A stretch of 64,000 nt of DNA from contig CAYUVA010000012.1 of the NCBI GenBank assembly GCA_964448115.1, positions 7,769 through 71,768 of the forward strand, read 5' to 3'. A program made the position numbers and the translations under genes. Every line of letters begins with the position of its first letter. Position 1 is the first letter of the stretch. A model generated the notes under the pieces. It worked only from the letters and a program-made list of their open reading frames with translations, ran no database searches and was not told the origin of the DNA. The stretch is from an uncultured bacterium (GTDB lineage Bacteria > CAYUVA01). Below, one piece after another: positions 228-50,852 of the stretch.

Positions 228-261
228 TCATGGCATTAAACCTATTCCTCCAAGAGCGATA

Positions 262-1269: not shown

Positions 1270-1377
1270 TATGCTCAGGCTCCTTGTTTTTAAGGATAAT
1301 CGGTCGAGTCAGGGGTGGATGTTAAGGGGCAAAGCCTACACTCACAACCAGCAGTGTACTAAACTCTCCATGTTTCC

Positions 1378-1407
1378 TTGACAATGCCATGGCTTATAGC
1401 CTATATA
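1378..1407 (+). promoter_or_regulatory. Candidate sigma-70 promoter for the downstream + strand signalling operon
   Basis: TTGACA (1378-1383), 18-nt spacer, TATATA (1402-1407), in the 227-bp divergent intergenic region upstream of the ORF starting at 1497. Confidence 0.3.
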
Positions 1408-1496
1408 TTATTGTAATAAAAAAATTTATCAAAGGGCTTATAACAAGGCAATCGCAACTAAATGCTTCTTGCTTAACTTAAAAAAGGAGGCAGCTT

Positions 1497-1793
1497 ATGA
1501 ATCAACACCAGAGGGCTATTATCCAGCAGCAGATGGATATCTTAAAAAAAAATATCCGAGGGGATGCAACCAGATATACCCTGCACGAATTCAAGAAGAA
1601 CCTGGTTCAATGGAAACAAACAACGCTAGATTGCCTGGAGGAAGCCTTCAAGGATGACAAGCAAGTCATCCACCAGTTTAACAAGCATTGGGAGAACATT
1701 GAGAGGATCAACTGGGATTCAGCACATAAGAACGAGATCCTGAAAAGTGTGATCTATAGAATGCATGAGTTTTTGACACAGCTAATTAGATAA
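1497..1793 (+). CDS. Small helical protein of 98 aa, first gene of the signalling operon; possibly a hemerythrin-like (HHE) domain
   Basis: Strong RBS AAGGAGG 6 nt upstream of the ATG. Several spaced His/Glu pairs (LHEF, HQFNKHWENIE, AHKNE, MHEF) resemble HHE cation-binding motifs. No other recognisable domain. Confidence 0.55.
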   Translation: MNQHQRAIIQQQMDILKKNIRGDATRYTLHEFKKNLVQWKQTTLDCLEEAFKDDKQVIHQFNKHWENIERINWDSAHKNEILKSVIYRMHEFLTQLIR

Positions 1794-1812
1794 GATCGGG
1801 CAGGTGAATTAC

Positions 1813-2973: not shown

Positions 2974-2982
2974 TACAACTCG

Positions 2983-4158
2983 ATGACTGGAAACACCGAA
3001 CTAAATAAGCAAATTAAGGATAAGCGTACAGCTCAGCCCAAGTTACTCATCGTCGATGATAACCGCAGTTTCCTGGAGACCTGCGTGGAATTCTTCAGCG
3101 AGGAGGGTTTTACGGTAGATCAGGCGGCAAGCGGTAATGAAGCACTTAGCTTGCTCGCTGAGAGCAATTATGATGTGATCCTTTCCGATATCGCCATGCC
3201 GGGACTTAGCGGTATCGATCTTTTAGAGCATATAAGAAATCGGGGCATAGATACCCCCGTTATCCTGGTAACCGCTTATGGCTCCCTGGATACAGCAGTT
3301 AAGGCACTTAAACAAGGGGTATTCGACTTTATCCTCAAACCGGTCAACATGGAAGACCTGCTTATGCGGGTACAAAAGAGCCTGGAGTTCTCTTATCTTA
3401 TGCAAGAGAAGTTCGAGCTTTACGAGCAACTGCGCGAAAAGGAGAAGCAGGAACGAGCCAAGGATGAGTTCATATCCATAATCTCCCATGAGCTGAAGAC
3501 GCCGGTTACGATAATTCGTAACTATATAGAGGTTATCGAGGCGTTGCTTCAAAACGATAAGGATGATGAGAAGATCAAAATATTGAGTATAATCAAAGAT
3601 CAACTGGAGAGGCTTCGTCGTGATATTCACAACCTGCTCTTCTTTTCACAGGTCAGTTCCAGCGAGTATGAACCAGCGGTCAGCGAGGTCGAGCTATCCA
3701 AGCTGGTCGGCTCAGTGGTCGAAAACTACCGCAACCTGGCAAATGAAAAAAAACTACTATTAGCTGTTGAGATCGCTGAAGGGATATGGATGAAAGGGGA
3801 TGGACGGCTGCTGGAGATGATGATCTCCAACCTGGTAGATAATGCGATAAAATTCAGCCATGAGGGTACGATTCAAGTATCGCTAACCAGGCTGGGTGAT
3901 TCCATCAGGTTGATCGTCTCCGACCAGGGCATCGGCATCCCCTCCGAGTCGATCAGCAAGATCTTCGATCGCTTCAGCCAGCTCGATTCTCACATGACGC
4001 GAAGGCACACTGGGGCAGGGCTGGGGCTGGCAATAGTCAAAAACGCGGTGAACACACATAGGGGGAAGATAAAAGTGGATAGTAAGCCCGGCAAGGGAAC
4101 CACCTTTACGGTTACCCTACCTGTAGATAGGAGTAAGATAAATGGAATCAAAAGATAA
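2983..4158 (+). CDS. Hybrid histidine kinase with receiver domain first (REC-HisKA-HATPase_c), paralogue of the upstream gene
   Basis: REC: LLIVDDNRSF ... VILSDIAMPGLSG ... FILKP. H-box: ISHELKTPVTII. G-boxes: GAGLGLAIVKNAVNTHRGKIKVDSKPGKGTTF. Confidence 0.9.
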   Translation: MTGNTELNKQIKDKRTAQPKLLIVDDNRSFLETCVEFFSEEGFTVDQAASGNEALSLLAESNYDVILSDIAMPGLSGIDLLEHIRNRGIDTPVILVTAYGSLDTAVKALKQGVFDFILKPVNMEDLLMRVQKSLEFSYLMQEKFELYEQLREKEKQERAKDEFISIISHELKTPVTIIRNYIEVIEALLQNDKDDEKIKILSIIKDQLERLRRDIHNLLFFSQVSSSEYEPAVSEVELSKLVGSVVENYRNLANEKKLLLAVEIAEGIWMKGDGRLLEMMISNLVDNAIKFSHEGTIQVSLTRLGDSIRLIVSDQGIGIPSESISKIFDRFSQLDSHMTRRHTGAGLGLAIVKNAVNTHRGKIKVDSKPGKGTTFTVTLPVDRSKINGIKR

Positions 4159-4519
4159 ACGACAGATACTGATCCTGGATGATGAGTATCATCTGGCGCA
4201 ATCCACTGCCATAGTACTCAAGATGAAGGGATATAAGTGCGATATAGCCCTGGATGTAGATGAGGGTCTTGAGTTGATAAAGTCCAAGGAATACCAGCTT
4301 ATCCTGCTCGATATAATGCTGCCCGGTAAGGATGGCTGGCGCTTCCTGGAGCAGCTACGCAAGGATAATAAGAACAAGCATATAGCGGTGATCGCATTTA
4401 CGGCTAAGGAATATCTGAACATCGAGAAGCTGGTGAAAGAGAAGGGCTTGCAAGGTTTCTTGGCAAAGCCCTTTGAGCCGTCCGAACTTCTAGCTATCAT
4501 TCGCAAGGTATTAAAGTAG
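4142..4519 (+). CDS. Single-domain CheY-like response regulator receiver
   Basis: ILILDDEY ... LILLDIMLPGKDG ... FLAKPF. Overlaps the previous gene by 17 nt. GGAG RBS upstream. Confidence 0.9.
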   Translation: MESKDKRQILILDDEYHLAQSTAIVLKMKGYKCDIALDVDEGLELIKSKEYQLILLDIMLPGKDGWRFLEQLRKDNKNKHIAVIAFTAKEYLNIEKLVKEKGLQGFLAKPFEPSELLAIIRKVLK

Positions 4520-4534
4520 TGGAGTTTTTGAACC

Positions 4535-5560
4535 ATGAGCGATCAAAAGAGCATAAGCGACAGGATACTTGAAGTCTGCCAGATTCCATTGCTGGTGGTA
4601 GATGCTGACTGCAAGATGGTTTATCTGAATCCGGCTATGGATCAACTGGTCTCTCAGTGCGGGTTTGAGGATGACCTCGATGGCTTTATAGAGCGCATGA
4701 AAAAGCAGTTATCGATCTATATCAACGGTATTCTCGATGGACTCTTTGCGAAGTATAATAATAAGATCGACCTGTGTGATAGAGAACTCTTCGTGTCCCT
4801 TTTTTGCTTGGATGAGGATAAAAAGCAGGTTTTGCTCCAGGTAGAAGATCGAACAGGGATCAAGCAACAGGAGCGCTTTCGTTTCACCCAGATAGCTGAG
4901 CTGGTTCATAGACTTCGCTCGCCGCTGACCGCCATAAATATATCGATGAATATGCTCCAGGAGAGCAGGGGGGATCTATCCGAGGATGAGCAGAATACGC
5001 TAATAAGAAACGCCAGACAAGAAACCAAGCGTTTCATCGTACTATTGAACAACCTGCGAGATCTTTTATTGATCGAATCCGGAATCATGTCCAGCCAGAT
5101 AAATCTCGACGAATGCAATCTTAGGGATATCATCGACGATGCAATAGGAAGCCTGGAGGCTATAATAAAAGAAAAAGGTATCGAGCTATCCTACTCGCCG
5201 GAGCTTTTCGATCACCTGGTGATCACCGATCGCATGAGGCTCACCCAGGTGGTGGCTAACATACTCTCCAATGCGATGCAATTCTCGCCGAGAGGCTCTA
5301 CCGTGGGCATAAGCTGCTATGATGAGGAGGATCACCTGCGCATTACCGTCTCCGATCGCGGGATCGGCATCCCACAAAAGGAGCTAGCCTTCATATTCGA
5401 CAAGTTCTACCGGGGCAGTTCACCCGAGGTGCGCATGGTGCCTGGGGACGGCATCGGACTATATATCAGCAAACATCTGCTTCAGATATTAGGCGGGGAG
5501 ATAGAGGTGCTCTCTACATGGGGCAAGGGCACCCAGGTAGAGATTAAACTCTGGACATAA
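4535..5560 (+). CDS. Sensor histidine kinase (N-terminal PAS-like region, HisKA, HATPase_c), cytoplasmic
   Basis: H-box: LVHRLRSPLTAINISMNML. N/G-boxes: ILSNAMQFSP ... GDGIGLYISKHLLQILGGEIEVLSTWGKGTQV. No predicted TM segment. Confidence 0.88.
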   Translation: MSDQKSISDRILEVCQIPLLVVDADCKMVYLNPAMDQLVSQCGFEDDLDGFIERMKKQLSIYINGILDGLFAKYNNKIDLCDRELFVSLFCLDEDKKQVLLQVEDRTGIKQQERFRFTQIAELVHRLRSPLTAINISMNMLQESRGDLSEDEQNTLIRNARQETKRFIVLLNNLRDLLLIESGIMSSQINLDECNLRDIIDDAIGSLEAIIKEKGIELSYSPELFDHLVITDRMRLTQVVANILSNAMQFSPRGSTVGISCYDEEDHLRITVSDRGIGIPQKELAFIFDKFYRGSSPEVRMVPGDGIGLYISKHLLQILGGEIEVLSTWGKGTQVEIKLWT

Positions 5561-5573
5561 GAAGCATACCATT

Positions 5574-6965
5574 ATGAGTTTCAATATACTTATAGTTGAG
5601 CCAAAGACCAAGCACCGCGATTTACTACGCAATATGCTATTGCAATGGGGATATATGGTAAAGACGGCAAGCTCAGCCGAGGAGGCATTGGAGGAGATTC
5701 GCAGACAACAATTCTCCTTGGTTTTGGTAGATTATGATCAGCCCCAGGAGCGAGCCGCCATCACAAGTTCGCTGGACAAAAACCTTGCCGATTACTCGCT
5801 TTTTTATATTTCCGAGAAGGCAAAAGCCCCTGACATTGTGGATGGGTTAAAAAGCGGTGCGGATAACTTCTTCGTTCTCCCCCTGGACATAGACTCCTTT
5901 AAAAAGGCAGTCAGCGATATTTACCACAAACATAAAAAGAGCAAACATAGGAAACTGACCAAGCAGCGTCAACGGGAGGCTTATTCCATAGATAGCCTGA
6001 TCGGCTCCAGTAAGCCGATGATGGAGCTAAAAACTAAGCTGCGCAGGATATGCCAAAGCAAGGCTTCAACCGTCCTTATCACCGGCGATAGCGGGGTTGG
6101 CAAGGGGCTGGTCGCTCGCATCATCCACTACAACAGCGACCGAGCTGATCAACCATTCGTGGAGCTTAACTGCAGCGCTATACCCGAATCTTTGCTGGAG
6201 ATGGAACTATTCGGCTATGTGGAGGGCGCATTTACCGACGCGAAGAAGGACAAGAAGGGGCTTTTGGAGATCGCGGATCAAGGGAGTTTGTTCCTTGATG
6301 AGATCAGCGATATGCCGATGCTTCTCCAGGTCAAGCTGCTCAAAGCGATCGAGGAAAAGACCTTCCGTAAGCTCGGAGCCACCTCTGATGAGCTTGTTGA
6401 TGTGCGCATTATAACCGCAACCAATCGAGATCTAGGTGAACAGATCCGGTTGGGGAACTTTCGAGAGGATCTTTTCTATCGATTGAATGTTATTGGGCTT
6501 CACATTCCGCCCTTGAGGGAACGCCCCGAGGATATCGAGGAGTTGAGCTATCATTTTATTGAGAAATTCAATACGGAGTTTGGCCGCAATGTCAGTAGCC
6601 TTCATCCTCAAACGCTCAAGATCTTCAAAGAATATCACTGGAACGGTAATGTACGAGAGCTTTCCAACCTTATAGAAAGGATCATGCTACTGGAGGAGAT
6701 AGAGACTATAACCCCGGATGTACTTCCCAAGGAGATGCTAAAGGCAACAGGATACACCGCATCAGCTTTTGATAGCGGCAAAAAGCACTTTTTCGAGCTG
6801 CCCAAGGATGGAATTTCGCTTGAGGAGGTGGAGAAAGATCTAATTGCACAGGCGGTAAAGCGTGCCGGTGGCAATATCGCCGAGGCATGCCGGCTGCTAG
6901 GGCTTAGTCGTGAGACTTTGCGCTATCGGATAAAAAAATACAACATTGAGGTGCAGCGCAGGTAG
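5574..6965 (+). CDS. Sigma-54-dependent transcriptional activator (NtrC-family enhancer-binding protein) with an atypical N-terminal receiver
   Basis: AAA+ sigma-54 interaction domain: Walker A TGDSGVGKG, GAFTDA (GAFTGA variant), LFLDEISDM, FREDLFYRLNV. C-terminal Fis-type HTH: AGGNIAEACRLLGLSRETLRYRIKKY. The receiver keeps the LVLVD Asp but lacks the acidic DD pair and the KP motif. Confidence 0.92.
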   Translation: MSFNILIVEPKTKHRDLLRNMLLQWGYMVKTASSAEEALEEIRRQQFSLVLVDYDQPQERAAITSSLDKNLADYSLFYISEKAKAPDIVDGLKSGADNFFVLPLDIDSFKKAVSDIYHKHKKSKHRKLTKQRQREAYSIDSLIGSSKPMMELKTKLRRICQSKASTVLITGDSGVGKGLVARIIHYNSDRADQPFVELNCSAIPESLLEMELFGYVEGAFTDAKKDKKGLLEIADQGSLFLDEISDMPMLLQVKLLKAIEEKTFRKLGATSDELVDVRIITATNRDLGEQIRLGNFREDLFYRLNVIGLHIPPLRERPEDIEELSYHFIEKFNTEFGRNVSSLHPQTLKIFKEYHWNGNVRELSNLIERIMLLEEIETITPDVLPKEMLKATGYTASAFDSGKKHFFELPKDGISLEEVEKDLIAQAVKRAGGNIAEACRLLGLSRETLRYRIKKYNIEVQRR

Positions 6966-6970
6966 GTTAC

Positions 6971-9900
6971 TTGCTCAATAACCGACCTGGCTTGCACTTA
7001 TTCTATTATAGCTTGACCGAGAAGCAAAAAAAATCCGAATCCCTCCAGGAGTTGGTCAGCTCATTCGTGCCCGAGCACATATTACCCTACCTATCTGAGC
7101 AGAGGCTGCTCACCTTCAAGGGTGAACGAAGGCGGCTTAGCATCCTTTTCGCTGATATCAGCGGTTTCACCAGCCTCTCCGAGCAGCTTGATCCTGAACA
7201 GGTCATCGGCCTGGTCAACCAATTCTTCCTGCGGGTAATCGAGATCTCACGAAGCAAGCTCGGTGTGGTCGATAAATTCTTAGGCGATGCTGCCCTTATA
7301 ATTTTTGGCGCCAGTAGATATACCGGATTAGAGTCGGTACTGGCAATCAAGACCGCATTGGAGCTTGTAAGGATGGTGGAAAGCGAAAAATTCACCATCT
7401 TGAACAGCTCTGAACCGATAAAAATCGGAATCAAGGTAGGAATTAACACCGGCAGAGTAGTTGCCGGTATCGTGGGAGGTAAACACAAGCGGGAATATAC
7501 AGTCATCGGAGACGAGGTAAACCTGGCTTCTCGCATAGAAGATCTGGCTCAAACCGGTGAGATACTTGTAAGCCACCAGACCATGCTGGAAGCAAAAGAT
7601 CACTTCGAGTTCGAGGACCTGGGGTACAAAAAGCTCAAGGGTAAATCAGAGCCTTTGCGCATATACAAGGTGCTTGGCAGCAAGAAAATAGGGAAAGTCA
7701 TCGAAAAAAAGCGCCAGCTTTTCAGGTTCGTGGATAGAGAGAAGGAGATCGCTTCCTTCGAGGAACTTCTAAGATCCGATAATAAAAGCATCCGATCGGT
7801 TGCGGTAACCGGCGATACCGGCATCGGTAAGACCGAATTGATCGGCAAGCTGAGAGACAAGTTGCAACAGGTCAACTACCAGATATTTGAGGCTGGTGGA
7901 CAAGGCTGGTGGGGGGAGACTGTGCTTGCGCCTGTAAGGGCTGTCTTCAGGCAACTATTGAAGACGCAAGAGGTGCCCCTGGATAGGCTCAAGGAATACC
8001 TGGATGAAGCATTAGCTGCCATAGCGGATAAAACATGGCATAAGCAGGCAGACCGCGAGGTATCAAAGGAGTTAATAAATGATCCCAACATCGAGGATCT
8101 ATTATTCTTCTTGTGCAGCCATACCGATAACTATTCGCTGATCGAGCACCTGGGTTCTAGCCGACTGAGGGAGAATATACTCGCTTTATTATCTCTTGTC
8201 GCAAGCGCTAAAAGCCATGAAGCTCCTATATCATTTATATTCGATGATCTGGAGGGTTACGATTCATTGAGTGTGGAGGTTATATCCGATCTTGTGGCAA
8301 GTCGGGCAATTGAAGGCGCCATCATTATACTCGGCTATGAGAGATCATATTTCAAGGCTGATTTGCTGAATAATAGATGCGACCTGGTGCTGGTGCTAAA
8401 GCCTTTGGAGCCGGGGATGCTTCGCGCCGCTGCCTCGATGTTTGTCAAAAAGCATCCCCAAGTAAGCCCGATCATGAACAGGATCATCCAGGCATCTGGT
8501 GGCATACCCCTGGTATTCAAGGAGATGCTCAATGCGCTAGCGCAACAGCCCGCTGAATCACTGGAAAAGGCATCAACCTCGCTACTGGGAGATCTGCAAG
8601 GCTCCCAGGCGCTGGAACAGGTAGCGCTGAGCCGTTTCGATGCCCTATCGGTTCTACAAAAAGACATCATCCGCTTTGCCTCTATCTTGGATGCTCCCTT
8701 CTCGATAGATCTAATTGCACGATTTTTCCCGTTCGACAAGGAGCTTGTGCATGATGAGATCAAACTGCTTGCCGATCGAGGTTTCTTTACAACAAGTCAA
8801 AGTCCAAGCGGGCAGGTTGTGTATAAACTTGCTCGACCATTCTTCGCTGATGCGATCTATCAAACCATCCTAAAGGATCAGAGAAGGGAAATGCATCAAA
8901 AGATAGCCGATACCCTTGAATCGTTGAGCTACCATGATCCTAATCGAAGCAATAGAAGCCTGGCTCTACATTTTCACCATGCAGGCATCGACCACAAGGC
9001 ATATTACTATCTGCTGGATCTGGCAGAGTCCTTAAGCAGCGTCGATGCACACCGAGAAGCTATCGAATACCTCGAATTGGCTGGCATGCACCTTCCAGGT
9101 TCACCATCAGATAAGGCTAATGAACGGGCGCGCTTGAACCTGAAGCTGGGGAGTTCTTACGAGGCTTTGGGAATGTGGGACAAGGCACAAAATATATACC
9201 TGGAGACGGTAGCGATATTCCGAGATGCCAAAGACATAAACGAGATAACCGCCAAGGCTTACGCCAGCCTGGGGAGCATCCTGATAAACAAGGGCGAATG
9301 GAAGGCTGCCCAAAGTTACCTGGATAAGGCAAATTCATATTATATCGAAAAGGAAGACCTGGAGGGCATGTTCAATACCTACAACCAAAGGGGTATCCTA
9401 GAGATACAACAGGGGAATCTGGAGGCGGGATTCGGCTTCTTCAACAAAGCGCTTGAATGCGGCCAAAGACTGAAGGATCCCCGGCTACAGTCATCAGCCT
9501 TGGTCAATCTCGGCATAGCCTATAATATTTCCGGCAAGCGCAAGGATGCGATTGCTGCATATCTGAAGTCGCTGCCGCTGTTCGAGTTTATGGGCGATTT
9601 CAATGCCATAGCCCGCACCTACCATAATCTTGGCATGACCTACCGGGACCTGAAAAGATTCAAAGATGCAGAGAACTATTACAGAAAGGCTCTGGAGATC
9701 CTGCGCCGTTGTATGGATTATCATCTGTCAGGAATGACCTACATGAACCTCTCTGATGCATTAGGCGAGCAGGGAGACACTCGTGCTGCACTAAGCTTCA
9801 ATGAGCGCGCCGAGCAATTTCTTATGCGCGTCGGCGATGAGCTTGCCCTGGCGGACTGTAGGAGGATAAAGGGCAAGATACTCCACAAGGCAGGAAAGAA

Positions 9901-10126
9901 TAGTTTAAGCCTCCAGGCATACCAGGAGGCAGCCGAAATGGCTCAAAAAGGGGGAGCCTCATTGACCCTGGCAGAGGTGTATTTTGAGATGGGTCAGGTG
10001 TTCCTAATGGAAAAAAGGCGAGATAAGGCGATTGGGCACTTGAATAAAGCCAGGGAGATCTTCCTTCAACTAGGGAATTCAGAGATGGTGGCTGCAATCG
10101 ATAAGCTCTTAAAGCCACGAGAATGA
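6971..10126 (+). CDS. Class III nucleotidyl cyclase - STAND/AAA NTPase - TPR multidomain signalling protein
   Basis: Cyclase domain: LSILFADISGFTSL ... DKFLGDAA ... TVIGDEVNLASRIE (metal Asp, transition-state Asn and Arg present). P-loop: VAVTGDTGIGKTEL. TPR-like repeats fill the C-terminal third or so. TTG at 6971 is the first start-type codon in frame after the stop at 6949 and sits 5 nt after the upstream stop. There is no in-frame ATG before the cyclase domain. Confidence 0.88.
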   Translation: MLNNRPGLHLFYYSLTEKQKKSESLQELVSSFVPEHILPYLSEQRLLTFKGERRRLSILFADISGFTSLSEQLDPEQVIGLVNQFFLRVIEISRSKLGVVDKFLGDAALIIFGASRYTGLESVLAIKTALELVRMVESEKFTILNSSEPIKIGIKVGINTGRVVAGIVGGKHKREYTVIGDEVNLASRIEDLAQTGEILVSHQTMLEAKDHFEFEDLGYKKLKGKSEPLRIYKVLGSKKIGKVIEKKRQLFRFVDREKEIASFEELLRSDNKSIRSVAVTGDTGIGKTELIGKLRDKLQQVNYQIFEAGGQGWWGETVLAPVRAVFRQLLKTQEVPLDRLKEYLDEALAAIADKTWHKQADREVSKELINDPNIEDLLFFLCSHTDNYSLIEHLGSSRLRENILALLSLVASAKSHEAPISFIFDDLEGYDSLSVEVISDLVASRAIEGAIIILGYERSYFKADLLNNRCDLVLVLKPLEPGMLRAAASMFVKKHPQVSPIMNRIIQASGGIPLVFKEMLNALAQQPAESLEKASTSLLGDLQGSQALEQVALSRFDALSVLQKDIIRFASILDAPFSIDLIARFFPFDKELVHDEIKLLADRGFFTTSQSPSGQVVYKLARPFFADAIYQTILKDQRREMHQKIADTLESLSYHDPNRSNRSLALHFHHAGIDHKAYYYLLDLAESLSSVDAHREAIEYLELAGMHLPGSPSDKANERARLNLKLGSSYEALGMWDKAQNIYLETVAIFRDAKDINEITAKAYASLGSILINKGEWKAAQSYLDKANSYYIEKEDLEGMFNTYNQRGILEIQQGNLEAGFGFFNKALECGQRLKDPRLQSSALVNLGIAYNISGKRKDAIAAYLKSLPLFEFMGDFNAIARTYHNLGMTYRDLKRFKDAENYYRKALEILRRCMDYHLSGMTYMNLSDALGEQGDTRAALSFNERAEQFLMRVGDELALADCRRIKGKILHKAGKNSLSLQAYQEAAEMAQKGGASLTLAEVYFEMGQVFLMEKRRDKAIGHLNKAREIFLQLGNSEMVAAIDKLLKPRE

Positions 10127-10136
10127 ACCCGCTGGA

Positions 10137-10841
10137 TTATTCCTCCTTCAGGTGTTTTTTTATGATCCCCAGAAATTGTTGATTATCCTTTAGCTTCTCG
10201 AAGTCTATGTCATCCCAGGCATACTGCGCCATCCGTTCATCCTTGCAAACTGCCTTCTGAACCCTAGAGATAGCATCCTCCAGCCTGTTGTAACGAGCAT
10301 GGATGGAGGCGATATAGTAGTGAGCCTCTGCCTCGTTCTCACGGTTGGCAATAGCCTTCTCGAATGCCTGTAAAGCCTCATCGAAATTGTTGGAGGCGTA
10401 GTAATAAACCGCACTGCTAAAGTCGCTCATATCGGCATCGACAATATTTCCCTTAATATTCTTCTTGTTATCGAAGTATCTTTTCAGATAGTTGGAGGCT
10501 ACGTGTCGTAGTGAGATATCTGCTGATTCCTGACCAAGGATGGTGTTAAGCAACCTCTCAGCCTCTTTCTTCTTCCTATTCTGCAACGATATTAGTGCCT
10601 TATCCAATAATTTTTCAAGATCTACCGATGTTGGTACAGATTGTGCTTTAGGTTTCGGCTTAGGGGGTGCTTTTTTTCTTTTAACTTGACTGGTAGTTGC
10701 CTTTTGTTTTTTTACCTTTGAGCGCTTATTTCTTACCGCCGATTTTGTTACGCCATATCTTTCAGCAAGCTGTGTATCGGTCAATCCATCGGGGTTATAT
10801 ACGATGTCATAGACCTCATCATCATTCCATTTTTTAGGCAT
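10137..10841 (-). CDS. Hypothetical protein with N-terminal HTH-like region, Lys-rich linker and C-terminal TPR-like repeats
   Basis: QLAERYGVTKSAVRNKR (HTH-like), then KRKKAPPKPKPKAQ, then TPR-like YYYASNNFDEALQAFEKAI. GGGAGGAG RBS upstream of the ATG at 10841. Confidence 0.7.
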   Translation of the reverse strand: MPKKWNDDEVYDIVYNPDGLTDTQLAERYGVTKSAVRNKRSKVKKQKATTSQVKRKKAPPKPKPKAQSVPTSVDLEKLLDKALISLQNRKKKEAERLLNTILGQESADISLRHVASNYLKRYFDNKKNIKGNIVDADMSDFSSAVYYYASNNFDEALQAFEKAIANRENEAEAHYYIASIHARYNRLEDAISRVQKAVCKDERMAQYAWDDIDFEKLKDNQQFLGIIKKHLKEE

Positions 10842-11091
10842 GAATGGCTTCTCCTCCCTACATTGAAGGTTTAAGAAAACGGTTTTTAGTGATAAAGTAC
10901 CTCATAAAAATAGACCAGGGCGGGCAATCCGCCAAAACATTGACCATGTAATCAAGTCAATTGATAGCAGACATTTTCATCCAAGTCAAGTAAGCTGATT
11001 TCTCACCCACAAACTATGCATAATGATTAACCATATTCTTTCAAAATCCTCGCAATGATAATCGATGTAAACAGCGCTGAGGAATTGATTT

Positions 11092-11285
11092 TTTACAATT
11101 GTGTCGATAGGAGTTGATATACTTTCACCCTCAACAGAGGGCTTCAGCCCTCTGCTTCTATCAGCGGACTAAAGCCACGCTGTTGATGGGGCTTAATCAC
11201 TGGATACCCCCTTCGTGGGGACAGGCTTTTAGAGGAGATATTCCTACTAACTAAAGTCCCCTCTATCAAGAGGGGATTTAGGGGT
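11092..11285 (+). ncRNA. Candidate structured small RNA (promoter-like element, nested hairpins, terminator-like hairpin); strand and identity uncertain
   Basis: TTTACA (11092-11097), 20-nt spacer, TATACT (11118-11123). Hairpins: 11135-11154 (8-bp stem), 11162-11182 (5-bp stem), 11207-11220, and a strong 8-bp stem at 11257-11276 followed by TTTAGGGGTGTGTCTTTCTT. Alternative long-range pairing of 11128-11137 with 11180-11191. No ORF of 60 aa or more. Confidence 0.3.
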
Positions 11286-11366
11286 GTGTCTTTCTTCCCT
11301 TAATACCTCTTTTGAGGTCTTACTTAGACTTTAAGGGCATTTGTTCGCTCTATGGGCTGAGCTAGT

Positions 11367-12599
11367 TTATATGTTCTTGAGGTCGCGGCTACTTATGGAG
11401 AACGAGAACATAAGCTCCTCATCGAAGTTGGTGGCAAGCGCGAAGCTCATGGTTCCAGCACTGAATCCCATGGTGATATAAGAAGGCGTATCGCTTGTGG
11501 CTAGGTTTGCCAGGTACCCGCAGCGGAGGGCATAGAATCCCTCGGAGAAGGTCTTCTGCGCGCCTAAGCCAAAGAAGTGATAGCGCTGGTAGGTGTTTAT
11601 GGTCTTTTCCTTGGTGATATCGTAATCTAATGCTATGGTCCATGTCTTTGCAGGCATAACAGCAGCCCCAATCCTCGCTTGTGGTTTCAGCTCGGTTTTC
11701 TTGGTTATGAATGTCCCTTCATCGACCTTGATCTTGTATTTGAACTCAGGTCCATTGATGTTACGAGCCACGATTCCGACCGATAGCAGCTCCCGATACT
11801 CGTAATAGCATCCGAGATCAAGGGCATAACTACTTGTGGTAAGGCTTTCGCCCCTGGTTACGCTATCTTCCTCCACTTCGCTATCCTGCTCGGCGTTGTC
11901 CTGGATATTGTAGGTATAATGCGTCATTGAGCCGGTGATAAAGCGCAGCGTTCCCCCGAACTTGATATCGCCCTCGATGTAATCCCTCATCTCTTTTGTC
12001 AGAATGGATCTCCCATAAGAGACTCCCAGGTCTAAGCCGGCTCGCACTGCCAGGAACATCTTGCTTTGGTTGTAGTAAATCGAGTTGGGATCTACCAGGT
12101 AGTCAGAGGGATTGATGCGCTCCATATCGATTATGAAGTAATCATCCAGCACGGCGCCAAGCCCGATACTTAAAGCAAAGTTATTATATGAGACGGCGAG
12201 ATTCTTTCGGTACTTTACACTCAGATTAGTTCCCCGCTCGTTTATCTTTTGTAGTTTCCTGAGCAAGTTCGCATAATCATCGAGCGTTGGGTCATAGTAC
12301 TGTTCATCGTAAAGATTGGTATCGGAGAAGACATCCATTATATCATCGAACTTACCTAGAAAATCGTTGCCGTTGACCAGCTTGAAGATGGTCGGTGTAT
12401 AGGTAATCGCATTGCCAGACGGGATCAGCGCTGGATTGAAGTGTGCTGATGCAGCATCCAGCTTGATGCAGGCGAATGTACCCCCCATCCCCAGAGAGCG
12501 TGCATCGAACAGATCCGGCTCCAAAGCCATGGATTGGACTGAGAAAATACAAAGAAATAGGGGTATCGCAATTATCATCAAGCAACGAGCCGCTGCCAT
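11367..12599 (-). CDS. Putative outer-membrane beta-barrel protein with N-terminal signal peptide
   Basis: Signal peptide MAAARCLMIIAIPLFLCIFSVQSMA. Mature protein has alternating amphipathic Gly/aromatic-rich segments and is rich in Tyr, Gly and Asn. AAAGGAGG RBS upstream. Family assignment not possible by eye. Confidence 0.7.
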   Translation of the reverse strand: MAAARCLMIIAIPLFLCIFSVQSMALEPDLFDARSLGMGGTFACIKLDAASAHFNPALIPSGNAITYTPTIFKLVNGNDFLGKFDDIMDVFSDTNLYDEQYYDPTLDDYANLLRKLQKINERGTNLSVKYRKNLAVSYNNFALSIGLGAVLDDYFIIDMERINPSDYLVDPNSIYYNQSKMFLAVRAGLDLGVSYGRSILTKEMRDYIEGDIKFGGTLRFITGSMTHYTYNIQDNAEQDSEVEEDSVTRGESLTTSSYALDLGCYYEYRELLSVGIVARNINGPEFKYKIKVDEGTFITKKTELKPQARIGAAVMPAKTWTIALDYDITKEKTINTYQRYHFFGLGAQKTFSEGFYALRCGYLANLATSDTPSYITMGFSAGTMSFALATNFDEELMFSFSISSRDLKNI

Positions 12600-12745
12600 G
12601 TTAGCGACCTCCTTTTATGATTGAGTCTTCATCAGCGATCATACGCCATCTCGAAATTTAAAGCTATCATAATAAAGTCCTTGTTTCGGGATTAAAAGAT
12701 GCCTTGCATTGCATGCGGTTTTCTGCTTAATAATTAAGCTGCATT

Positions 12746-13930
12746 ATGACTGCGAGGGATGCAAACATAAATAAATACCTTTTAGCCATACACCTTGCCG
12801 ATGGTGTAGGCTCCGTTTTGTCTGATCGTCTGCTTACCGAGTTTCCTGATCCCAAGGAGATCTTCGATGCACCGATAAAAAGGCTGACCGCGATCAAAGG
12901 GATGAGCGAACGCATAGCCAGGAATATCAAAAATACCCTTGATTCGGAAAGGCTGAAGCAGGAATTGAAGTCTATTTCGGAGCATAAAGTTACCTTGATA
13001 ACCAGGCTCGATCCCGCTTATCCTGCAAACTTGAATAAAATAAAGGATCCACCGCTGGTATTGTATGTTCAAGGCAGATTAGCACCTGAAGATATTAACT
13101 CGGTTGCCATAGTCGGCACCAGAGAATGCAGTTACTACGGGATGAAGATGGCAGATTACTTTGCCAGGGAATTGGCAGCCAGGGGTATAACCGTGATCAG
13201 TGGCTTGGCGCGTGGAATCGACTCTTATGCCCACGCCGGTGCATTGAAGGAAGCCAAGGGAAGGACCATAGCTGTAGTCGCATCCGGTCTCGATATCGTT
13301 TATCCATCAGAGAACTACCAGCTAAAGAATATGATCGTAAACAAGGGAGCTGTGATCTCCGAGCTGCCTATGGGGACAAGACCGGATCGATCCAATTTTC
13401 CATCAAGAAATCGCCTGATCAGTGGTCTATCGCTCGGCGTTCTGATAGTGGAAGCGCCTGCGAAAAGCGGAGCACTGATCACCGCTGACATAGCCTTTGT
13501 TCAAGGGCGACTGGTCTTTGCGGTACCGGGCAGGGCAGACGATCAAGGAACAAAGGGCAATCTCAGGATACTCAAGAATGGTGCAAAGGTGGTCGCTGAT
13601 GTGAAGGATATCATAGACGAACTCGAATCGCTGCTCACCTTTCGACCAAAGAAGGACATTACACCTCAAAACGCAGTCATAGAAGGAGATTCGGCTGATC
13701 GGGTCAATAACGAGCTAGAAAAATCTACACCTAAAGGAACGCCACAGGGTCTATCTTCCGAAGAGGTAGCCGTATTCAACCTGCTGAGCGACTCACCGAG
13801 ATATATAGATGATCTGGCAAGCGAACTCGGCAAGCCGGTACACATTATCGGCTCCGTACTGCTTAAATTGGAGATCCTCGGATTAGCCATGCAATTGCCC
13901 GGCGGAATGTTCAAAAGAGCGGAAGAATAA
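12746..13930 (+). CDS. dprA: DNA processing protein A (DprA/Smf)
   Basis: Rossmann-like DprA core: VAIVGTRECSYYGMKMADYFARELAARGITVISGLARGIDSYAHAGAL ... SGALITADIAFVQGRLVFAVPG. The gene is adjacent to topA. Confidence 0.92.
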   Translation: MTARDANINKYLLAIHLADGVGSVLSDRLLTEFPDPKEIFDAPIKRLTAIKGMSERIARNIKNTLDSERLKQELKSISEHKVTLITRLDPAYPANLNKIKDPPLVLYVQGRLAPEDINSVAIVGTRECSYYGMKMADYFARELAARGITVISGLARGIDSYAHAGALKEAKGRTIAVVASGLDIVYPSENYQLKNMIVNKGAVISELPMGTRPDRSNFPSRNRLISGLSLGVLIVEAPAKSGALITADIAFVQGRLVFAVPGRADDQGTKGNLRILKNGAKVVADVKDIIDELESLLTFRPKKDITPQNAVIEGDSADRVNNELEKSTPKGTPQGLSSEEVAVFNLLSDSPRYIDDLASELGKPVHIIGSVLLKLEILGLAMQLPGGMFKRAEE

Positions 13931-13932
13931 AA

Positions 13933-16104
13933 ATGGCGCAAAAATCATTGATAATAGTGGAATCGCCGGCAAAGGCTAAGACCATAAACAAGATCCTCGG
14001 TTCCGGGTTCTTTGTCAAATCATCGGTTGGACATATAAAAGATCTGCCCCAGAAGAGGTTAGGGATCGATATCGATCATGATTTCAGACCCGAATTCGTG
14101 GTAATGCCCGGCAAATTGAAGGTCCTAATGGAGCTTAAGAAGGCTGCCCAGAACGCGGATCAGATACTGCTGGCAGCGGATCCGGATCGCGAGGGCGAGG
14201 CTATATGCTGGCATCTTTACGAGGAGCTTCGAAAGGAGAATCAACGGATACATCGCGTGTTGTTCACCGAGATCACTCCCAATGTAGTCAAACAGGCGAT
14301 CAAGTCGCCAATAGGCATCGATTCTAATAAGATCGAGGCTCAGTTGGCTCGTCGCATCTTGGATAGGCTGGTCGGCTATCAGATCAGCCCCCTGCTTTGG
14401 CGTAAGGTATCCAAGGGCTTGAGCGCCGGCAGAGTACAATCGGTGGCGGTGAGGCTGATCTGCGAGCGCGAGCGGGAGATACTCGCCTTTGTGCCCGAAG
14501 AATACTGGTCGATCAATGCCCTGCTTCAGGGAAGCAAACCGGGTAGATTCGAGGCTGGATTGAAGAAGATAGATGGCAAGAACTTCAAGCTCTCCAATCA
14601 AGACGAGGCAAAGGCTGTAGTTGACGAAGCCAGTAAACAGGAGTTCATACTCGATAACATCAACAAAAAGACCAAAAGGCGCAATCCTTACCCACCTTAT
14701 ATTACCAGTACCCTTACCCAGGATGCCTCGATTCGATTAAGGTTCAGCCCCAAGAAGACAATGCGCTTGGCTCAGGATCTATACGAGGGAATAGAGATCG
14801 GGAACAAGGGTCCAGTGGGTCTTATTACCTACATGAGAACCGACTCGGTGCGCATATCAAAGGATTTCGTGCAAGAAGCTAGGCAGTTCATCGCTGATAA
14901 CTTCTCATCCAAGCACATTCCTTCAAAGCCGAATATTTATAAAAGCTCCAAGTCCGCTCAGGAGGCACATGAGGCGATAAGACCCACATCGATGGCTAAT
15001 ACCCCAGAATCATTGAAGAATTATCTGAGAAGGGATCAATATTTAGTTTACAAGCTGATCTGGGATAGATTCGTAGCCTCGCAGATGTCGCCGGCTCAGT
15101 TCTTTGTTACCACCTTCACAATCAAGGCAGGCAGGTTCACTTTCCAAGCTAGCGGACAACAGATGATCTTTGATGGATTCCTGGCTGTCTATCAGGATCA
15201 TAAACCAGAGAAAAATGGCGATGATAATAATGAGAAAGAACCTGCTGCAGTGCTGCCCGAACTTAAAAAAGGAGAGAAACTCAGTCTGATCGAACTCAAC
15301 AAGAAACAGCACTTTACAACACCACCCCCTAGATACAGCGAGGCTTCGCTGATAAAAGAGCTGGAGCAAAACGGGGTAGGAAGACCGAGCACTTATGCAG
15401 CCATAATAAGTACCATCCTGGATCGCAACTATGTGGAACTGAACAAACGCAAGTTCCAGCCGACAGAGCTGGGCTTCCTAGTAAACGACCTGCTAGTGGA
15501 GAACTTCCCTCGCATACTGGATGTCAAGTTCACTGCCCAGATGGAGGAAAGCCTCGATAAAATAGAGCTTGGCAAGCTGGATCGCCTTAAGCTGCTTGAT
15601 TCTTTTTACCGGGATTTTCATGCCGCACTTAAGGAGGCAGAAAAGAAGATGCGGGAGGTGAAGAAGGAGATCACCGAGACCGACGAGAAGTGCGAGCTTT
15701 GCGGAAGCAAAATGATCATACGAATGGGCAAAAACGGCAGATTCCTCGGATGTTCAGCATTCCCCAAATGCAAGTTCACCAAGCCGCTGAATGATCAAGA
15801 TAACGCAATTGATAAGCAGGCTGAATCAATAAGTGATCTCGGCAATTGCCCGCAGTGCGGATCTCCTTTGGCACTCAAAAGGGGTAAGTACGGACCCTTT
15901 ATCGCCTGTACTGGTTACCCCAAGTGTAGATATACTAAACCTTTCGTGCTCGATATCCCATGCCCTAAAGATGGCTGCGACGGTAAGATAGTGCCTAAGC
16001 GCTCAAAGAAGGGCAAGACATTCTATGTATGCTCCAATAGTCCCAAATGCGACTTCATCGCCTTTAAGCGACCACAAGCAAAGGGAAAAACGAAAAAATC
16101 TTAA
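13933..16104 (+). CDS. topA: DNA topoisomerase I
   Basis: TOPRIM: LIIVESPAKAKTINKILG ... SVGHIKDLP. Catalytic region: LITYMRTDS. Three C-terminal Cys4 zinc ribbons (CELCGSKM...CSAFPKC; CPQCGSP...CTGYPKC; CPKDGCDGK...CSNSPKC). Confidence 0.95.
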   Translation: MAQKSLIIVESPAKAKTINKILGSGFFVKSSVGHIKDLPQKRLGIDIDHDFRPEFVVMPGKLKVLMELKKAAQNADQILLAADPDREGEAICWHLYEELRKENQRIHRVLFTEITPNVVKQAIKSPIGIDSNKIEAQLARRILDRLVGYQISPLLWRKVSKGLSAGRVQSVAVRLICEREREILAFVPEEYWSINALLQGSKPGRFEAGLKKIDGKNFKLSNQDEAKAVVDEASKQEFILDNINKKTKRRNPYPPYITSTLTQDASIRLRFSPKKTMRLAQDLYEGIEIGNKGPVGLITYMRTDSVRISKDFVQEARQFIADNFSSKHIPSKPNIYKSSKSAQEAHEAIRPTSMANTPESLKNYLRRDQYLVYKLIWDRFVASQMSPAQFFVTTFTIKAGRFTFQASGQQMIFDGFLAVYQDHKPEKNGDDNNEKEPAAVLPELKKGEKLSLIELNKKQHFTTPPPRYSEASLIKELEQNGVGRPSTYAAIISTILDRNYVELNKRKFQPTELGFLVNDLLVENFPRILDVKFTAQMEESLDKIELGKLDRLKLLDSFYRDFHAALKEAEKKMREVKKEITETDEKCELCGSKMIIRMGKNGRFLGCSAFPKCKFTKPLNDQDNAIDKQAESISDLGNCPQCGSPLALKRGKYGPFIACTGYPKCRYTKPFVLDIPCPKDGCDGKIVPKRSKKGKTFYVCSNSPKCDFIAFKRPQAKGKTKKS

Positions 16105-16282
16105 GAGATCTCCTCAAGATATATAAGGTTGTGTCCCACCGCCGGGGCAAGGACTGGATGTCCGTTCGCCCGTGTATGTATAAGACAAGCTAATAATATT
16201 CGTGAAAGTGGCTCTAAAGAACCTTTTTTGCATTTTGTTGGCGAAAATATTAAAAAAACGCCAATGAAAAAGGAAAAAGCTA

Positions 16283-16702
16283 ATGCAGACTAATGATTTC
16301 AGCTTTAATGATGAGCAGAACTTCTCCGAGATAAATGTCGTGCCGCTGGTAGATATAATACTGGTCTTGTTGATAATCTTCATGATAGCAGCTCCCATGA
16401 TGAAGGCGGGCATCGAGGTCGATCTCCCCGAGGCATCACCGAGACAGTTCAATGTCGATATCGAGGAGCGATATGTCATAAGCATCAGCGCCCAGGGCGA
16501 TGTTTATCTTAATCAATCGAAGATACCAATCGATGAGCTAGAGCAGAAGATAAGGCAATTATACCATAATAAGCCCGATAAGGGAGTTTTCTTGCAGGCA
16601 GATAAGCGCGTGCCCTATGGCATAGTCGTAAAGGTTATGGATCATCTAAAGCGCGCTGGTATCGAGAATCTAGGGGTGATAACCGAATCGCCAGAGAGAT
16701 AG
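16283..16702 (+). CDS. exbD: ExbD/TolR-family biopolymer transport protein
   Basis: INVVPLVDIILVLLIIFMIAAPMM, a single TM helix, then a periplasmic domain. 139 aa. Confidence 0.85.
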   Translation: MQTNDFSFNDEQNFSEINVVPLVDIILVLLIIFMIAAPMMKAGIEVDLPEASPRQFNVDIEERYVISISAQGDVYLNQSKIPIDELEQKIRQLYHNKPDKGVFLQADKRVPYGIVVKVMDHLKRAGIENLGVITESPER

Positions 16703-16741
16703 TTTTCTCGGACCCTTCACCATCATATAATAAAGGGATGT

Positions 16742-18787
16742 ATGTCATTAATCGTTCTAAAGGATATCAATAAAAGCTATCCCACCAAGGATCTATTCCA
16801 AGGCTTGAACCTTACGGTGAATGATGGGATGAAGATAGGCTTGCTGGGGCAGAATGGCATCGGTAAGACGACCCTGCTTAACATGATCGCTGGCTTGGAG
16901 GAGCCTGATAGCGGAGATGTCTTCATTAAAAAAGGCTTGCGTATCGGCTACATGGAGCAGGAAGAGAAAATGGATCCCTCAAACACGGTATTCGAGGAGA
17001 CCTTGAGGGTATTTTCTGAAATTCTTGATATGGAGCGCTCGATGCGCAGCATTGAAAAACAGATGTCGAATATTAGATACGCAAACGACCACGAATACAA
17101 GAGTAAGCTCGATGAACAATACGATAAACTAACCCAGTTGTACATCAATAAAGGTGGATACGAGATTCATAACCGGGTGGAGGCGGTGCTATTTGGGCTG
17201 GCATTCAGCAAGGCGACAATAAATTCACCCATATCAGAGCTATCTGGCGGTCAAATTCGCAAGATCGCGCTCGCCAAGCTTCTTCTACTTGAGCCAGATG
17301 TAATGCTGCTCGATGAGCCGACAAATCATCTGGACCTGGCATCGATCCTCTGGTTCGAGGAGTTCCTCAAGCAATATCCCAAGACCTTCATGCTGGTCAG
17401 CCATGATCGCTGGCTGCTCGCCGAGACGGTGAATCACTGCATCGAGATCGAGGATAAAAAGGCGGTCGTGTATGCGGGAGGCTTCGACTTTTACCTGGAC
17501 GAGAAACAAAGGCGCGCACAGCGGCTTGAACACCAATACGAGCTGCAAAGAAAGGAAATACGCAGGCAAGAGGAGTTCATCCGAAGAAATATAGCTGCCC
17601 AGAAGTCCAAGCAAGCCAAATCGCGAAGAAAGATGCTGCAAAAAATGGACAAGATAGACCTGCCGAGCAGAGAGAAAAAGCTCAGACACATCGATATAGT
17701 CAAATCGAGCAGAGGCGGTGCTTACACGGTTCGCATGGAAAATGTATCCTTCGGCTATGATAGGATGGCTCAACTCTTCACCGAGCTTAGCCTGGAGATC
17801 TACCGCGGGGAAAGCGTTGCACTTTTAGGAGCCAACGGCAGTGGCAAGACCACCCTTTTACGACTGATAATGGGTGAGTTAAAGCCGGATCTTGGCACCA
17901 TCAAGCTGGGACACGATATCAATATCGGCTACTTCGATCAGAGGTTGGCGATCATCAATCCCCAAAAGACCGTGCTTGAGGATGTTTGGGACGATTTTTC
18001 CCATCTCTCTTACATCGAGATGCGCGGCGAGCTAGGGCGTTTTCTTTTCGGTGATGACAAGGTAAACCGACCGGTTCATACCCTAAGCGGTGGAGAAAAA
18101 AGTCGATTATGCCTGCTGAAACTGATCCTGCGCAATCCTAATTTTCTTATCCTGGACGAGCCGACCAATCATCTTGATGTAAACTCCATAGAGGTCATCG
18201 AGGAGGCACTGCTTAGATATGATGGTACCGTACTTGTAGTCTCACACGACCGCAGCTTCCTGGACAACATAGTTGAGAGAATCCTTTATCTTAAGGACGG
18301 AAAAATCGAGGAATTCCTGGGCAGCTACGCGGAGATAAAAGGCAACATAGAGGCTATGCTTGCCGCAGATAACAAGCAAGGCGATTTTATAGAAACTGAA
18401 AAGGAAAAAGCCGATCTGGCTGCAAAAGAGAAAAAACAAGAAATAAAAAACATTCAATCACTAGAAAAAAGCGATCTTGCAAAAACGAAAAAGAAACGGA
18501 AAAAGAGAAAACCACCAACAACAGGTACTCCAAAAACCCTCAATAAAAACCCGGCTAGAGATAAAAATAAAAAGAATCAACGACTTGTCGAGCTTAAGCT
18601 AGAGCTACTCGAAAAGAAGATTTATGAAAAGGAGGAAAAACTCGCCCAGATCGCAAATAAACTCCAGGATGATGATACATACATCAATGGTGAACTCGTC
18701 CGCTCGTTAAACGATGAATACAAGCAGTTAAAAAAAGAGCTGGATGACCTATACTGGGAATGGAATGACATGACCAGGAATCTTTAA
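16742..18787 (+). CDS. ABC-F family ATPase (two ABC ATPase domains, no TM domain; Uup/EttA-like) with a Lys-rich coiled-coil C-terminus
   Basis: Walker A motifs LLGQNGIGKTTL and LLGANGSGKTTL. Signature motifs LSGGQIRKIALAKLL and LSGGEKSRLCLLKLI. Walker B motifs LLDEPTNHLD (twice). Inter-domain linker and a C-terminal KKRKKRK plus coiled coil. Confidence 0.92.
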   Translation: MSLIVLKDINKSYPTKDLFQGLNLTVNDGMKIGLLGQNGIGKTTLLNMIAGLEEPDSGDVFIKKGLRIGYMEQEEKMDPSNTVFEETLRVFSEILDMERSMRSIEKQMSNIRYANDHEYKSKLDEQYDKLTQLYINKGGYEIHNRVEAVLFGLAFSKATINSPISELSGGQIRKIALAKLLLLEPDVMLLDEPTNHLDLASILWFEEFLKQYPKTFMLVSHDRWLLAETVNHCIEIEDKKAVVYAGGFDFYLDEKQRRAQRLEHQYELQRKEIRRQEEFIRRNIAAQKSKQAKSRRKMLQKMDKIDLPSREKKLRHIDIVKSSRGGAYTVRMENVSFGYDRMAQLFTELSLEIYRGESVALLGANGSGKTTLLRLIMGELKPDLGTIKLGHDINIGYFDQRLAIINPQKTVLEDVWDDFSHLSYIEMRGELGRFLFGDDKVNRPVHTLSGGEKSRLCLLKLILRNPNFLILDEPTNHLDVNSIEVIEEALLRYDGTVLVVSHDRSFLDNIVERILYLKDGKIEEFLGSYAEIKGNIEAMLAADNKQGDFIETEKEKADLAAKEKKQEIKNIQSLEKSDLAKTKKKRKKRKPPTTGTPKTLNKNPARDKNKKNQRLVELKLELLEKKIYEKEEKLAQIANKLQDDDTYINGELVRSLNDEYKQLKKELDDLYWEWNDMTRNL

Positions 18788-18799
18788 TAATGCATAAGC

Positions 18800-50680: not shown

Positions 50681-50741
50681 TATAATTTGTTGGCATACAA
50701 GCAAGTGTATCTATTTAGTTCGAGTTAATTGCCCTTAAGTA

Positions 50742-50852
50742 GGTAGAAGCCCTCTACCAAAGGAGTTTGTCTTATACCCCCAGATATTTACCCGATATGT
50801 CATTCCGACCGAGCTTGTTCCGAAAAAACCAGCACAAGCTTGGTCGGAATGA
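50742..50852. repeat. Hairpin followed by a 19-bp inverted repeat between convergent genes (terminator, protein-binding site or small RNA)
   Basis: Hairpin 50742-50758 (6-bp stem, 5-nt loop). IR arms 50800-50818 and 50834-50852 (19 nt each, one C/T difference that becomes a G-U pair in RNA on one strand, 15-nt loop). Confidence 0.5.

Follow-up and report, generated by a model that had tools for sequence, protein, structure and literature searches.

Repetitive extragenic palindromes (REPs) and bacterial interspersed mosaic elements (BIMEs) of Enterobacteria and Pseudomonas are short palindromes of 20–40 nt outside of genes, often behind gene 3′ ends, and neighbouring units stand in opposite orientation and are able to pair with one another. 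REPs act as stabilisers of mRNA 3′ ends and as partial terminators. Miniature inverted-repeat transposable elements (MITEs), e.g. the Correia/NEMIS elements of Neisseria, are ~150-nt elements with terminal inverted repeats that lie near genes and are co-transcribed with them. Here we analyse a spacer in a 64-kb stretch of DNA from an uncultured bacterium (“the window”), which separates the genes for an outer-membrane protein and a TPR protein (Table 1). We favour the reading that it holds recurrent hairpin modules, which form a REP/BIME-like cluster behind the 3′ end of the outer-membrane protein gene. Its structured right half, from ~11128 to 11290 and perhaps to 11317, would be a cluster of three palindromic modules, designated X, Y′ and Z. 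The modules would stem from families of hairpins that are scattered over phage contigs and the DNA of other uncultured bacteria and are evidently mobile there, hence the terms REP/BIME-like and MITE-like for the cluster. Sequence comparison makes it very probable that X and Z are recurrent modules, and a role of the cluster at the mRNA 3′ end of the outer-membrane protein gene is put forward more tentatively.

Table 1 Features of the spacer and of its flanking genes (positions in the window)
Feature	Position	Strand	Remarks
Spacer	10842–11366		between two co-directional minus-strand genes
Outer-membrane beta-barrel protein gene, TraF_2 (PF13729)	11367–12599	minus	upstream of the spacer; Pfam E 6e-20
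TPR protein gene, 234 aa, orphan	10137–10841	minus	downstream of the spacer; Pfam TPR matches
AT-rich left half of the spacer	10842–11127	minus	GC content 0.37, versus 0.48 for the rest
Unit X, intact palindromic repeat unit	11132–11155	plus, forward	CAA-CAGAGGGCT-TC-AGCCCTCTG-C
Unit Y′, putative decayed sister unit, inverted	11163–11187	minus	plus-strand reading CAGCGGACT-AA-AGCCACGCTG-TTGA
Long imperfect hairpin, X cross-paired with Y′ and CAACAG/CTGTTG flanks	11128–11191	minus	competes with the local X hairpin
CCCCC-TTCGT-GGGG hairpin	11207–11220		not above chance
Unit Z, hairpin with conserved tail	11254–11289	plus	AAGTCCCCTCT-ATCA-AGAGGGGATTT, tail AGGGGTGTGT
Small hairpin ACCTC-TTTT-GAGGT	11304–11322		also right arm of a weak 19-nt inverted repeat

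A first-pass annotation had described nested and mutually exclusive hairpins in this spacer and had proposed them as a candidate small RNA (sRNA). The hairpins themselves were all confirmed by the sequence and an inverted-repeat check. The 8-bp hairpin at 11135–11154 is a perfect palindrome, CAGAGGGCT-TC-AGCCCTCTG, which can be read as 8 bp with a 4-nt loop, and the 5-bp hairpin consists of CAGCG and CGCTG at 11163–11167 and 11179–11183. The competing long-range helix pairs 11128–11137 with 11180–11189, with complementarity at 9 of 10 positions, and can be extended to 11191. The last hairpin spans 11254–11279 and has eight perfect base pairs at 11257–11276, or 11 bp including one G·U pair on the plus strand.

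For the block from 11120 to 11300, the folding energy was clearly better than that of shuffled sequence, with z values of −3.9 on the plus strand and −4.8 on the minus strand. Two segments carry this excess, i.e. 11124–11195 (−38.2 kcal/mol and z −5.7 on the minus strand, −30.2 kcal/mol and z −4.0 on the plus strand) and 11250–11283 (z −4.25 and −4.27, i.e. about −4.3 on either strand). The ~150 nt of dense structure that had been described are thus upheld for these two segments, but not for 11196–11250 (z +0.1 on the plus and −0.9 on the minus strand) and 11284–11345 (z −1.7 and −2.2). Likewise, a reported CCCC/GGGG hairpin does exist at 11208–11211/11217–11220, but it is contained in the former of these two segments and its folding is at chance level. 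The left part of the spacer, up to about 11140, has no excess structure in 150-nt windows (z between −1.2 and +2.6). When all gaps and 60 coding controls were ranked, the spacer was second for structure among the ten intergenic gaps of the window. X and Z, which are 100 nt apart, are the only perfect intergenic hairpins of at least 8 bp in the 64 kb.

An exact-word scan of JGI metagenome contigs revealed that the 20-mer of X (11135–11154) is present in more than 120 contigs, a count that is a lower bound; according to a rough estimate, about one chance match would be expected in a collection of this size. Unrelated control loci totalling 1.09 Mb do not contain the 20-mer, and plasmids and GenBank phages (9.6 Gb) contain only chance-level partial matches to X. 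Among the matches listed, to which all following values for the two classes and for the family apply, X occurs in two contexts, class A and class B.

Class B comprises 23 loci with a GC content of 0.31–0.37. In these loci X has the flanks GCAA...C, so that 24 nt are identical to the window, and the 24-mer of the window equals the class-B consensus (nhmmer with a class-B profile, E 5.7e-7). Up to ten copies of X are found per 14.5 kb, outside of real genes. They form tandem composite arrays with periods of 138–194 nt, and the BIME-like arrays of these contigs also have periods of 35–37 nt (e.g. L114 2657–3173, L135 1786–2474, L138 3387–3893 and L186 5624–6038). The arrays are mosaics of at least five palindrome types, which include a sister unit Y (CAGGTGGCT-AA-AGCCACCTG), GTAG...CTAC palindromes and a C5/G5/G5 hairpin, AATTCCCCCTTATCAAAGGGGGCAGGGGGATGTC. 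The latter is a Z-like unit and also builds 35–37-nt tandem arrays of its own. The mixing of palindrome types, GTAG...CTAC included, is a feature shared with REPs and BIMEs.

Class A comprises 97 loci with a GC content of 0.52–0.65. Here X forms a hairpin inside an element of ~150 nt, which has perfect terminal inverted repeats of 17 nt, CTAGTACTACAGTTGTA...TACAACTGTAGTACTAG, and adjoins unrelated housekeeping genes, e.g. those for fumarase, peptidases, DnaX and UvrA. The alignment of 69 distinct copies (L082–L201; e.g. L087 1700–1900 and L111 6100–6300) shows two internal hairpins with CUUCAG loops. The element ends in a hairpin CTAC-AGTT-GTAGAT, which may resemble the 3′ hairpin of Cas12a repeats, and it is not represented in Rfam. 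Judging from this architecture, the class A element is a MITE-like dispersed repeat, and the class-A copies of X are thus placed inside an element of the Correia/NEMIS kind. A conserved gene partner of class A X, as would be expected for a guide RNA of the TnpB or IscB type, was considered and rejected, because the flanking genes are unrelated housekeeping genes. In the loci that carry X and Z elsewhere, Rfam matches were confined to tRNAs.

We defined the X family by the pattern [G/T]CAA-CAGnnGGCT-nn-AGCCnnCTG, and its units are oriented such that [G/T]CAA is at the 5′ end, followed by CAG..GGCT, a T-rich loop and AGCC..CTG. We used 21 distinct copies, taken from both classes and from viral contigs, to build a covariance model, R1. 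It matches the window at 11129–11160 with 37.2 bits and an E value of 2e-8, which places X in the family, and the next match in the window has an E value of only 4. The pattern leaves two stem positions free, and the variant copies found there, of which 13 are compensatory (GT/AC, GG/CC) and 5 are not, indicate that the stem of the X family is maintained. In co-directional gene contexts, X-type units are oriented opposite to transcription in 25 cases versus 6 (binomial p ~9e-4, for copies that are not fully independent). X of the window is forward on the plus strand, so that an mRNA in the minus-strand sense bears the version with a GA loop, and its orientation relative to the flanking genes is the prevailing one of the family. 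A short-word BLAST with the whole gap showed no pile-up of matches outside X, and no other DNA of the window is common to the X-bearing loci.

In two viral contigs, X-type units occur as a full 26-nt palindrome, CAACAGAGGGCTTAAGCCCTCTGTTG (L202 5790–5850 and L204 8905–8950), with an additional isolated half-site, CAACAGAGGGCT, just upstream of the palindrome. This layout would also suit a protein-binding site.

The nested and mutually exclusive pairings involve Y′. When Y′ is turned forward by eye, it reads TCAACAG[C]GTGGCTTTAG-TCCGCTG. Its left arm and loop match a class-B variant, GCAACAGGTGGCTTTAGCCACCTG (GTGGCT), with the exception of the first flank base, which is a variable position in the units of the family, and an inserted C; the right arm is decayed. 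These likenesses are suggestive only of a membership of Y′ in the X family. X and Y′ stand tail to tail in the spacer, one forward and one inverted, as is typical of the alternating units of REPs and BIMEs. Related palindromes in opposite orientation would either fold locally or pair with each other via their arms and the CAACAG/CTGTTG flanks. On the minus strand the cross-paired hairpin contains two G·U pairs that become A·C mismatches on the plus strand, which accounts for the difference between −38.2 and −30.2 kcal/mol. The presence of X beside an apparently decayed, inverted sister unit would therefore be enough to explain the nested and mutually exclusive pattern, and the regulatory logic that had been proposed on account of the alternative pairings is not needed.

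Mutually exclusive helices with the strongest structure on the minus strand could also be accommodated by a cis-regulatory leader of the TPR gene, i.e. a riboswitch, attenuator or thermosensor with the local X hairpin and the X/Y′ hairpin as its two states. The TPR gene may indeed be a regulator, as indicated by a possible N-terminal helix-turn-helix that was seen by eye. Nevertheless, we regard such a leader as highly unlikely. The start codon is about 290 nt away from the hairpins, across AT-rich DNA without excess structure, and a promoter-like pair, TTGACT-17-TATCAA, is located downstream of the hairpins inside this stretch. No riboswitch or leader of Rfam gave a match even at E values up to 10, and the same hairpins adjoin unrelated genes elsewhere. 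In addition, the TPR protein has no homologues in which a shared leader could be sought.

In the second intact module of the cluster, Z, 36 of 36 nt are identical to positions 9118–9153 of the phage contig L205 (IMGVR_UViG_3300031553_000049), which encodes a head protease, a scaffold protein and a major head protein, and Z occupies the spacer between the genes for the latter two. The intergenic spacers of L205 also contain a second hairpin, CCCCTCT/AGAGGGG, and three palindromes of the class-B kind, GTAGGGGC...GCCCCTAC (the modules are at 6212–6241, 9118–9230, 10271–10310 and 10662–10685). The modules of L205 are the same set as those of the low-GC bacterial arrays. Another viral contig, L206, has a near copy of Z with the same hairpin and the same tail, GGGGATTTAGGGGTGTG, and with a different loop. 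Z and the C5/G5/G5 hairpin of class B have a common layout, i.e. a C-run, a loop of the TATCAA type, a G-run, a short spacer, a second G-run and TGT. The palindromes of L205 and the Z-like units of class B show that X and Z belong to a set of modules that co-occur elsewhere.

Two further candidate identities of Z were rejected. A CRISPR repeat, i.e. one of a series of direct repeats of 28–37 nt with unique spacers between them, does not fit, because the units are single in the window, the arrays elsewhere are devoid of spacers (periods of 35–37 or 138–194 nt) and the window has no cas genes. An attachment site does not fit either, because no integrase gene is present in the window and Z is placed between head genes in the phage contig.

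The minus strand has no other strong hairpin between the outer-membrane protein gene and Z, and the whole hairpin cluster is located in the 3′ flank of this gene, 90–240 nt past the stop codon. Because of this position on the transcribed strand of co-directional genes, the cluster is most likely read as an mRNA 3′ end. Z, followed by the X/Y′ hairpin of −38 kcal/mol, would stop or pause transcription and would block 3′-to-5′ exonucleases. In this way the outer-membrane protein gene and the TPR gene downstream would be uncoupled in their expression, the latter starting from a promoter of its own in the AT-rich left half. The function proposed for the cluster equals the role of REPs as 3′-end stabilisers and partial terminators.

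The annotation had offered, as a fallback, that the hairpin at 11257–11276 terminates the minus-strand outer-membrane protein gene, and this agrees with our results. The terminator scan flags Z on the minus strand only, with 8 pairs, 5 of them GC, and a weak tail, CTTTAGTTAG, and it is the top terminator-like site of this strand within positions 1–20000. Z shares with intrinsic terminators that it is a G+C-rich hairpin of 8–11 bp at a distance of 90 nt from the stop codon, that the adjoining sequence is A-rich on one side and T-rich on the other, and that it is the best terminator-like site by scan. In contrast to intrinsic terminators, its U-tract is poor on both strands. Furthermore, its 36 nt, including a tail without a T-run (AGGGGTGTGT), recur in phage contigs, which is unexpected for an ordinary terminator. 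A T-rich tract had been noted past this hairpin. The plus strand does read ATTTAGGGGTGTGTCTTTC there, but the tract is weak and does not amount to a U-tract on that strand.

The number of terminator-like sites in the window equals that of shuffled sequence, and neither promoter-like nor terminator-like sites are enriched. The lineage may therefore use different promoter and terminator signals. Sigma-70-like promoters and hairpin-plus-T terminators were at or below their shuffled frequencies in the window.

The alternative at the RNA level is an independent plus-strand sRNA of ~150–170 nt, possibly derived from repeats, that would be transcribed from TGATATACT, start near 11130, contain the X/Y′ alternatives and end at Z. 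In common with bacterial and 3′-UTR-derived sRNAs (UTR, untranslated region), the locus has an intergenic site, stable hairpins and a terminal hairpin. The extended −10-like motif TGATATACT (11115–11123) is indeed just upstream of the first hairpin, the plus-strand fold of 11120–11300 is non-random (z −3.9), Z gains one G·U pair on the plus strand and thereby reaches 11 bp, and its orientation to transcription would be that found in the two phage contigs. In contrast, the proposed promoter, TTTACA (11092–11097) and TATACT (11118–11123), is present as hexamers only: they are separated by 20 nt, and the pair was not reported by the promoter scan, which allows spacings of 16–18 nt. This sigma-70 scan revealed no site in the gap on either strand, so that an sRNA promoter of the sigma-70 type is not recognisable. 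By chance alone, a window of this size would have 1.47 sites of TGNTATACT and about 1.5 of the extended −10-like motif TGATATACT. Z is not followed by a U-tract on the plus strand, the X/Y′ segment is clearly more stable on the minus strand, and Y′ appears decayed rather than tuned. X-type units elsewhere favour an mRNA with the loop-GA form, which is the minus strand here.

A covariance-model search had been suggested as a check of the sRNA proposal. At gathering thresholds, Rfam 15 gave 0 matches in the 64 kb. In E-value mode on 10750–11450, with E values up to 10, the best scores were 10–21 bits versus gathering scores of 46–111. No tRNA or tmRNA gene was found in the 64 kb. A dedicated small regulatory RNA was thus supported by none of the tests: the promoter is at chance level, the plus strand is devoid of a U-tract, an Rfam family is absent, and, unlike in known sRNAs, the structured parts are modules that are found in unrelated genomes. 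We therefore regard the sRNA interpretation of the spacer as unsupported and its probability as low.

Several observations weigh against a REP/BIME-like cluster and were taken into account. Short-word BLAST and mismatch patterns detected X and Z only once each in the 64 kb, and high copy numbers were seen only in contigs of other organisms. The window has no GTAG...CTAC palindrome, and X and Z have no GTAG head, as is present in classical REPs. The whole-element profiles of classes A and B align with only 20–24 nt of the window. Y′ was not recovered by R1 at E values up to 10. The minus-strand tail past Z, CUUUAGUU, is a poor U-tract, and the orientation of Z relative to transcription is opposite to that in L205 and L206 and, by our reading, in class B. 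Finally, the 45 proteins of the window that were scanned contain no transposase, REP-associated tyrosine transposase (RAYT), integrase or Cas domain. RAYT genes are usually present as a single copy elsewhere in the genome, so their absence from 64 kb says little.

Compared with REPs and BIMEs, the locus thus differs in the missing GTAG head, in the absence of a RAYT gene from the window, and in the copy number, i.e. one copy each in 64 kb versus hundreds per genome. A further difference is that modules of 20–36 nt are identical across contigs of 31–65% GC and phage contigs, whereas classical REP families are, to our knowledge, lineage-specific. The comparison with MITEs is similarly mixed. The edges of the structured block bear a weak 19-nt inverted repeat, in which 11129–11147 is complementary to 11299–11317 at 15 of 19 positions and which is a possible element boundary. 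The flanking sequences ATACTTTCAC and TTACTTAGAC are identical by eye at 7 of 10 positions and could be an old target duplication. In contrast to MITEs, both features are weak, further copies are not found in the window, and only the 20-nt X hairpin is common to the window and the class A element. The locus was not filed as a REP or a MITE, because it consists only of short modules in single copies, without a GTAG head and without a transposase, and because Z has the opposite orientation. It would work like REP and MITE elements and is made of the same parts.

Some of these observations would also be explained if the block were an inert relic, i.e. a fragment of a mobile or phage-derived repeat in a tolerant spacer, without a role in the host and with a folding excess that reflects nothing but palindromic repeats. 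The single copies in 64 kb, the decay of Y′, the sharing of short modules rather than of a whole element, and the weak inverted repeat (15/19) that bounds 11129–11317, with its flanks (7/10) as a possible old target duplication, are in accordance with a relic. However, X and Z are still perfect, with 24 of 24 and 36 of 36 nt identical to copies in unrelated genomes, and the orientation bias of the family points to selection, or to insertion linked to transcription, more than to pure neutrality. We give this possibility a modest chance, higher than that of an sRNA or a leader, and prefer a REP/BIME-like cluster.

The flanking genes and other markers indicate that the window stems from a very poorly sampled lineage. 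Among 5.8 billion proteins, the best homologues of the outer-membrane protein are 25–36% identical, and a search of the genome collection with this protein as a query found no relative. The TPR protein has no homologue besides itself among 5.8 billion clustered proteins. For TopA, the best match in loci from 80 genomes is 52% identical, and for DprA the best match is 49% identical; the near-orphan flanking genes together with these two peak values are the basis for the placement. The hairpins were found in none of the TopA loci from the 80 genomes. The same organism is represented in one Logan contig of 3.5 kb, which ends inside the outer-membrane protein gene, and it is present in run SRR15988951. 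In other respects the window is ordinary chromosomal DNA, which encodes two-component systems, radical-SAM enzymes and glycosyltransferases and carries ligA and purL-like genes.

The one unusual aspect is the identity of modules across very different genomes and phage contigs. A search of the literature with the hairpin sequences yielded nothing relevant, and the X and Z families are also absent from Rfam. The results illustrate that a spacer packed with mutually exclusive hairpins does not have to encode a riboregulator, and a tempting false lead is thereby removed. They also indicate that, where relatives for a covariation analysis are lacking, repeat modules can be told apart from unique RNA genes by scanning metagenomes for a single exact word. 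Identical hairpins of 20–36 nt could point to an unrecognised route of spreading, which goes beyond the present finding. A bolder version, which we mention as improbable, is that X, Z and the GTAG palindromes are a module set that is exchanged between phages and bacteria of several phyla. If this were true, the identity across 31–65% GC would imply one conserved recognition partner, which could be a hairpin-specific HUH or other recombinase that mobilises the modules, or the modules could act at the RNA level as a phage-borne decoy or processing site. The copy in the window would then be an insertion of phage origin, perhaps with expression as a small structured RNA.

The promoter and the 5′-UTR of the TPR gene are presumably located in the left half of the gap. 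The TTGACT-17-TATCAA pair mentioned above was read from the sequence at 10989–10961 on the minus strand and was not flagged by the promoter scan. A ribosome-binding site, GGGAGGAG, was read before the ATG at 10841 of the TPR gene. Seven small open reading frames of 20–46 aa are present in the gap, and none of the seven has a convincing ribosome-binding site or a coding appearance. In the presumed 5′-UTR, about 75–90 nt upstream of the TPR start codon, a small hairpin, GGCGG-ATTGC-CCGCC, was seen by eye at 10918–10933 on the minus strand, followed 9 nt later by TATTTTTAT; this segment is without excess folding energy. The N-terminus of the TPR protein is lysine-rich, and it is here that the possible small helix-turn-helix was noticed by eye.

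The most structured stretch of the window is found at another site, i.e. at 50731–50880 in the gap 50681–50955, between ligA (end at 50680) and a minus-strand glycosyltransferase gene (end at 50956). It contains a stem of ~28 bp, GATATGTCATTCCGACCGAGCTTGT...ACAAGCTTGGTCGGAATGATATAT, followed by GGAGGGCTTTTTGG, with a folding energy of −64.7 kcal/mol and a z value of −8.2 on the plus strand. The stem has no match in Rfam and is flanked by AAGCCCTC...GAGGGCTT, the same sequence as the arms of the X hairpin. It is probably a bidirectional terminator between the two convergent genes.

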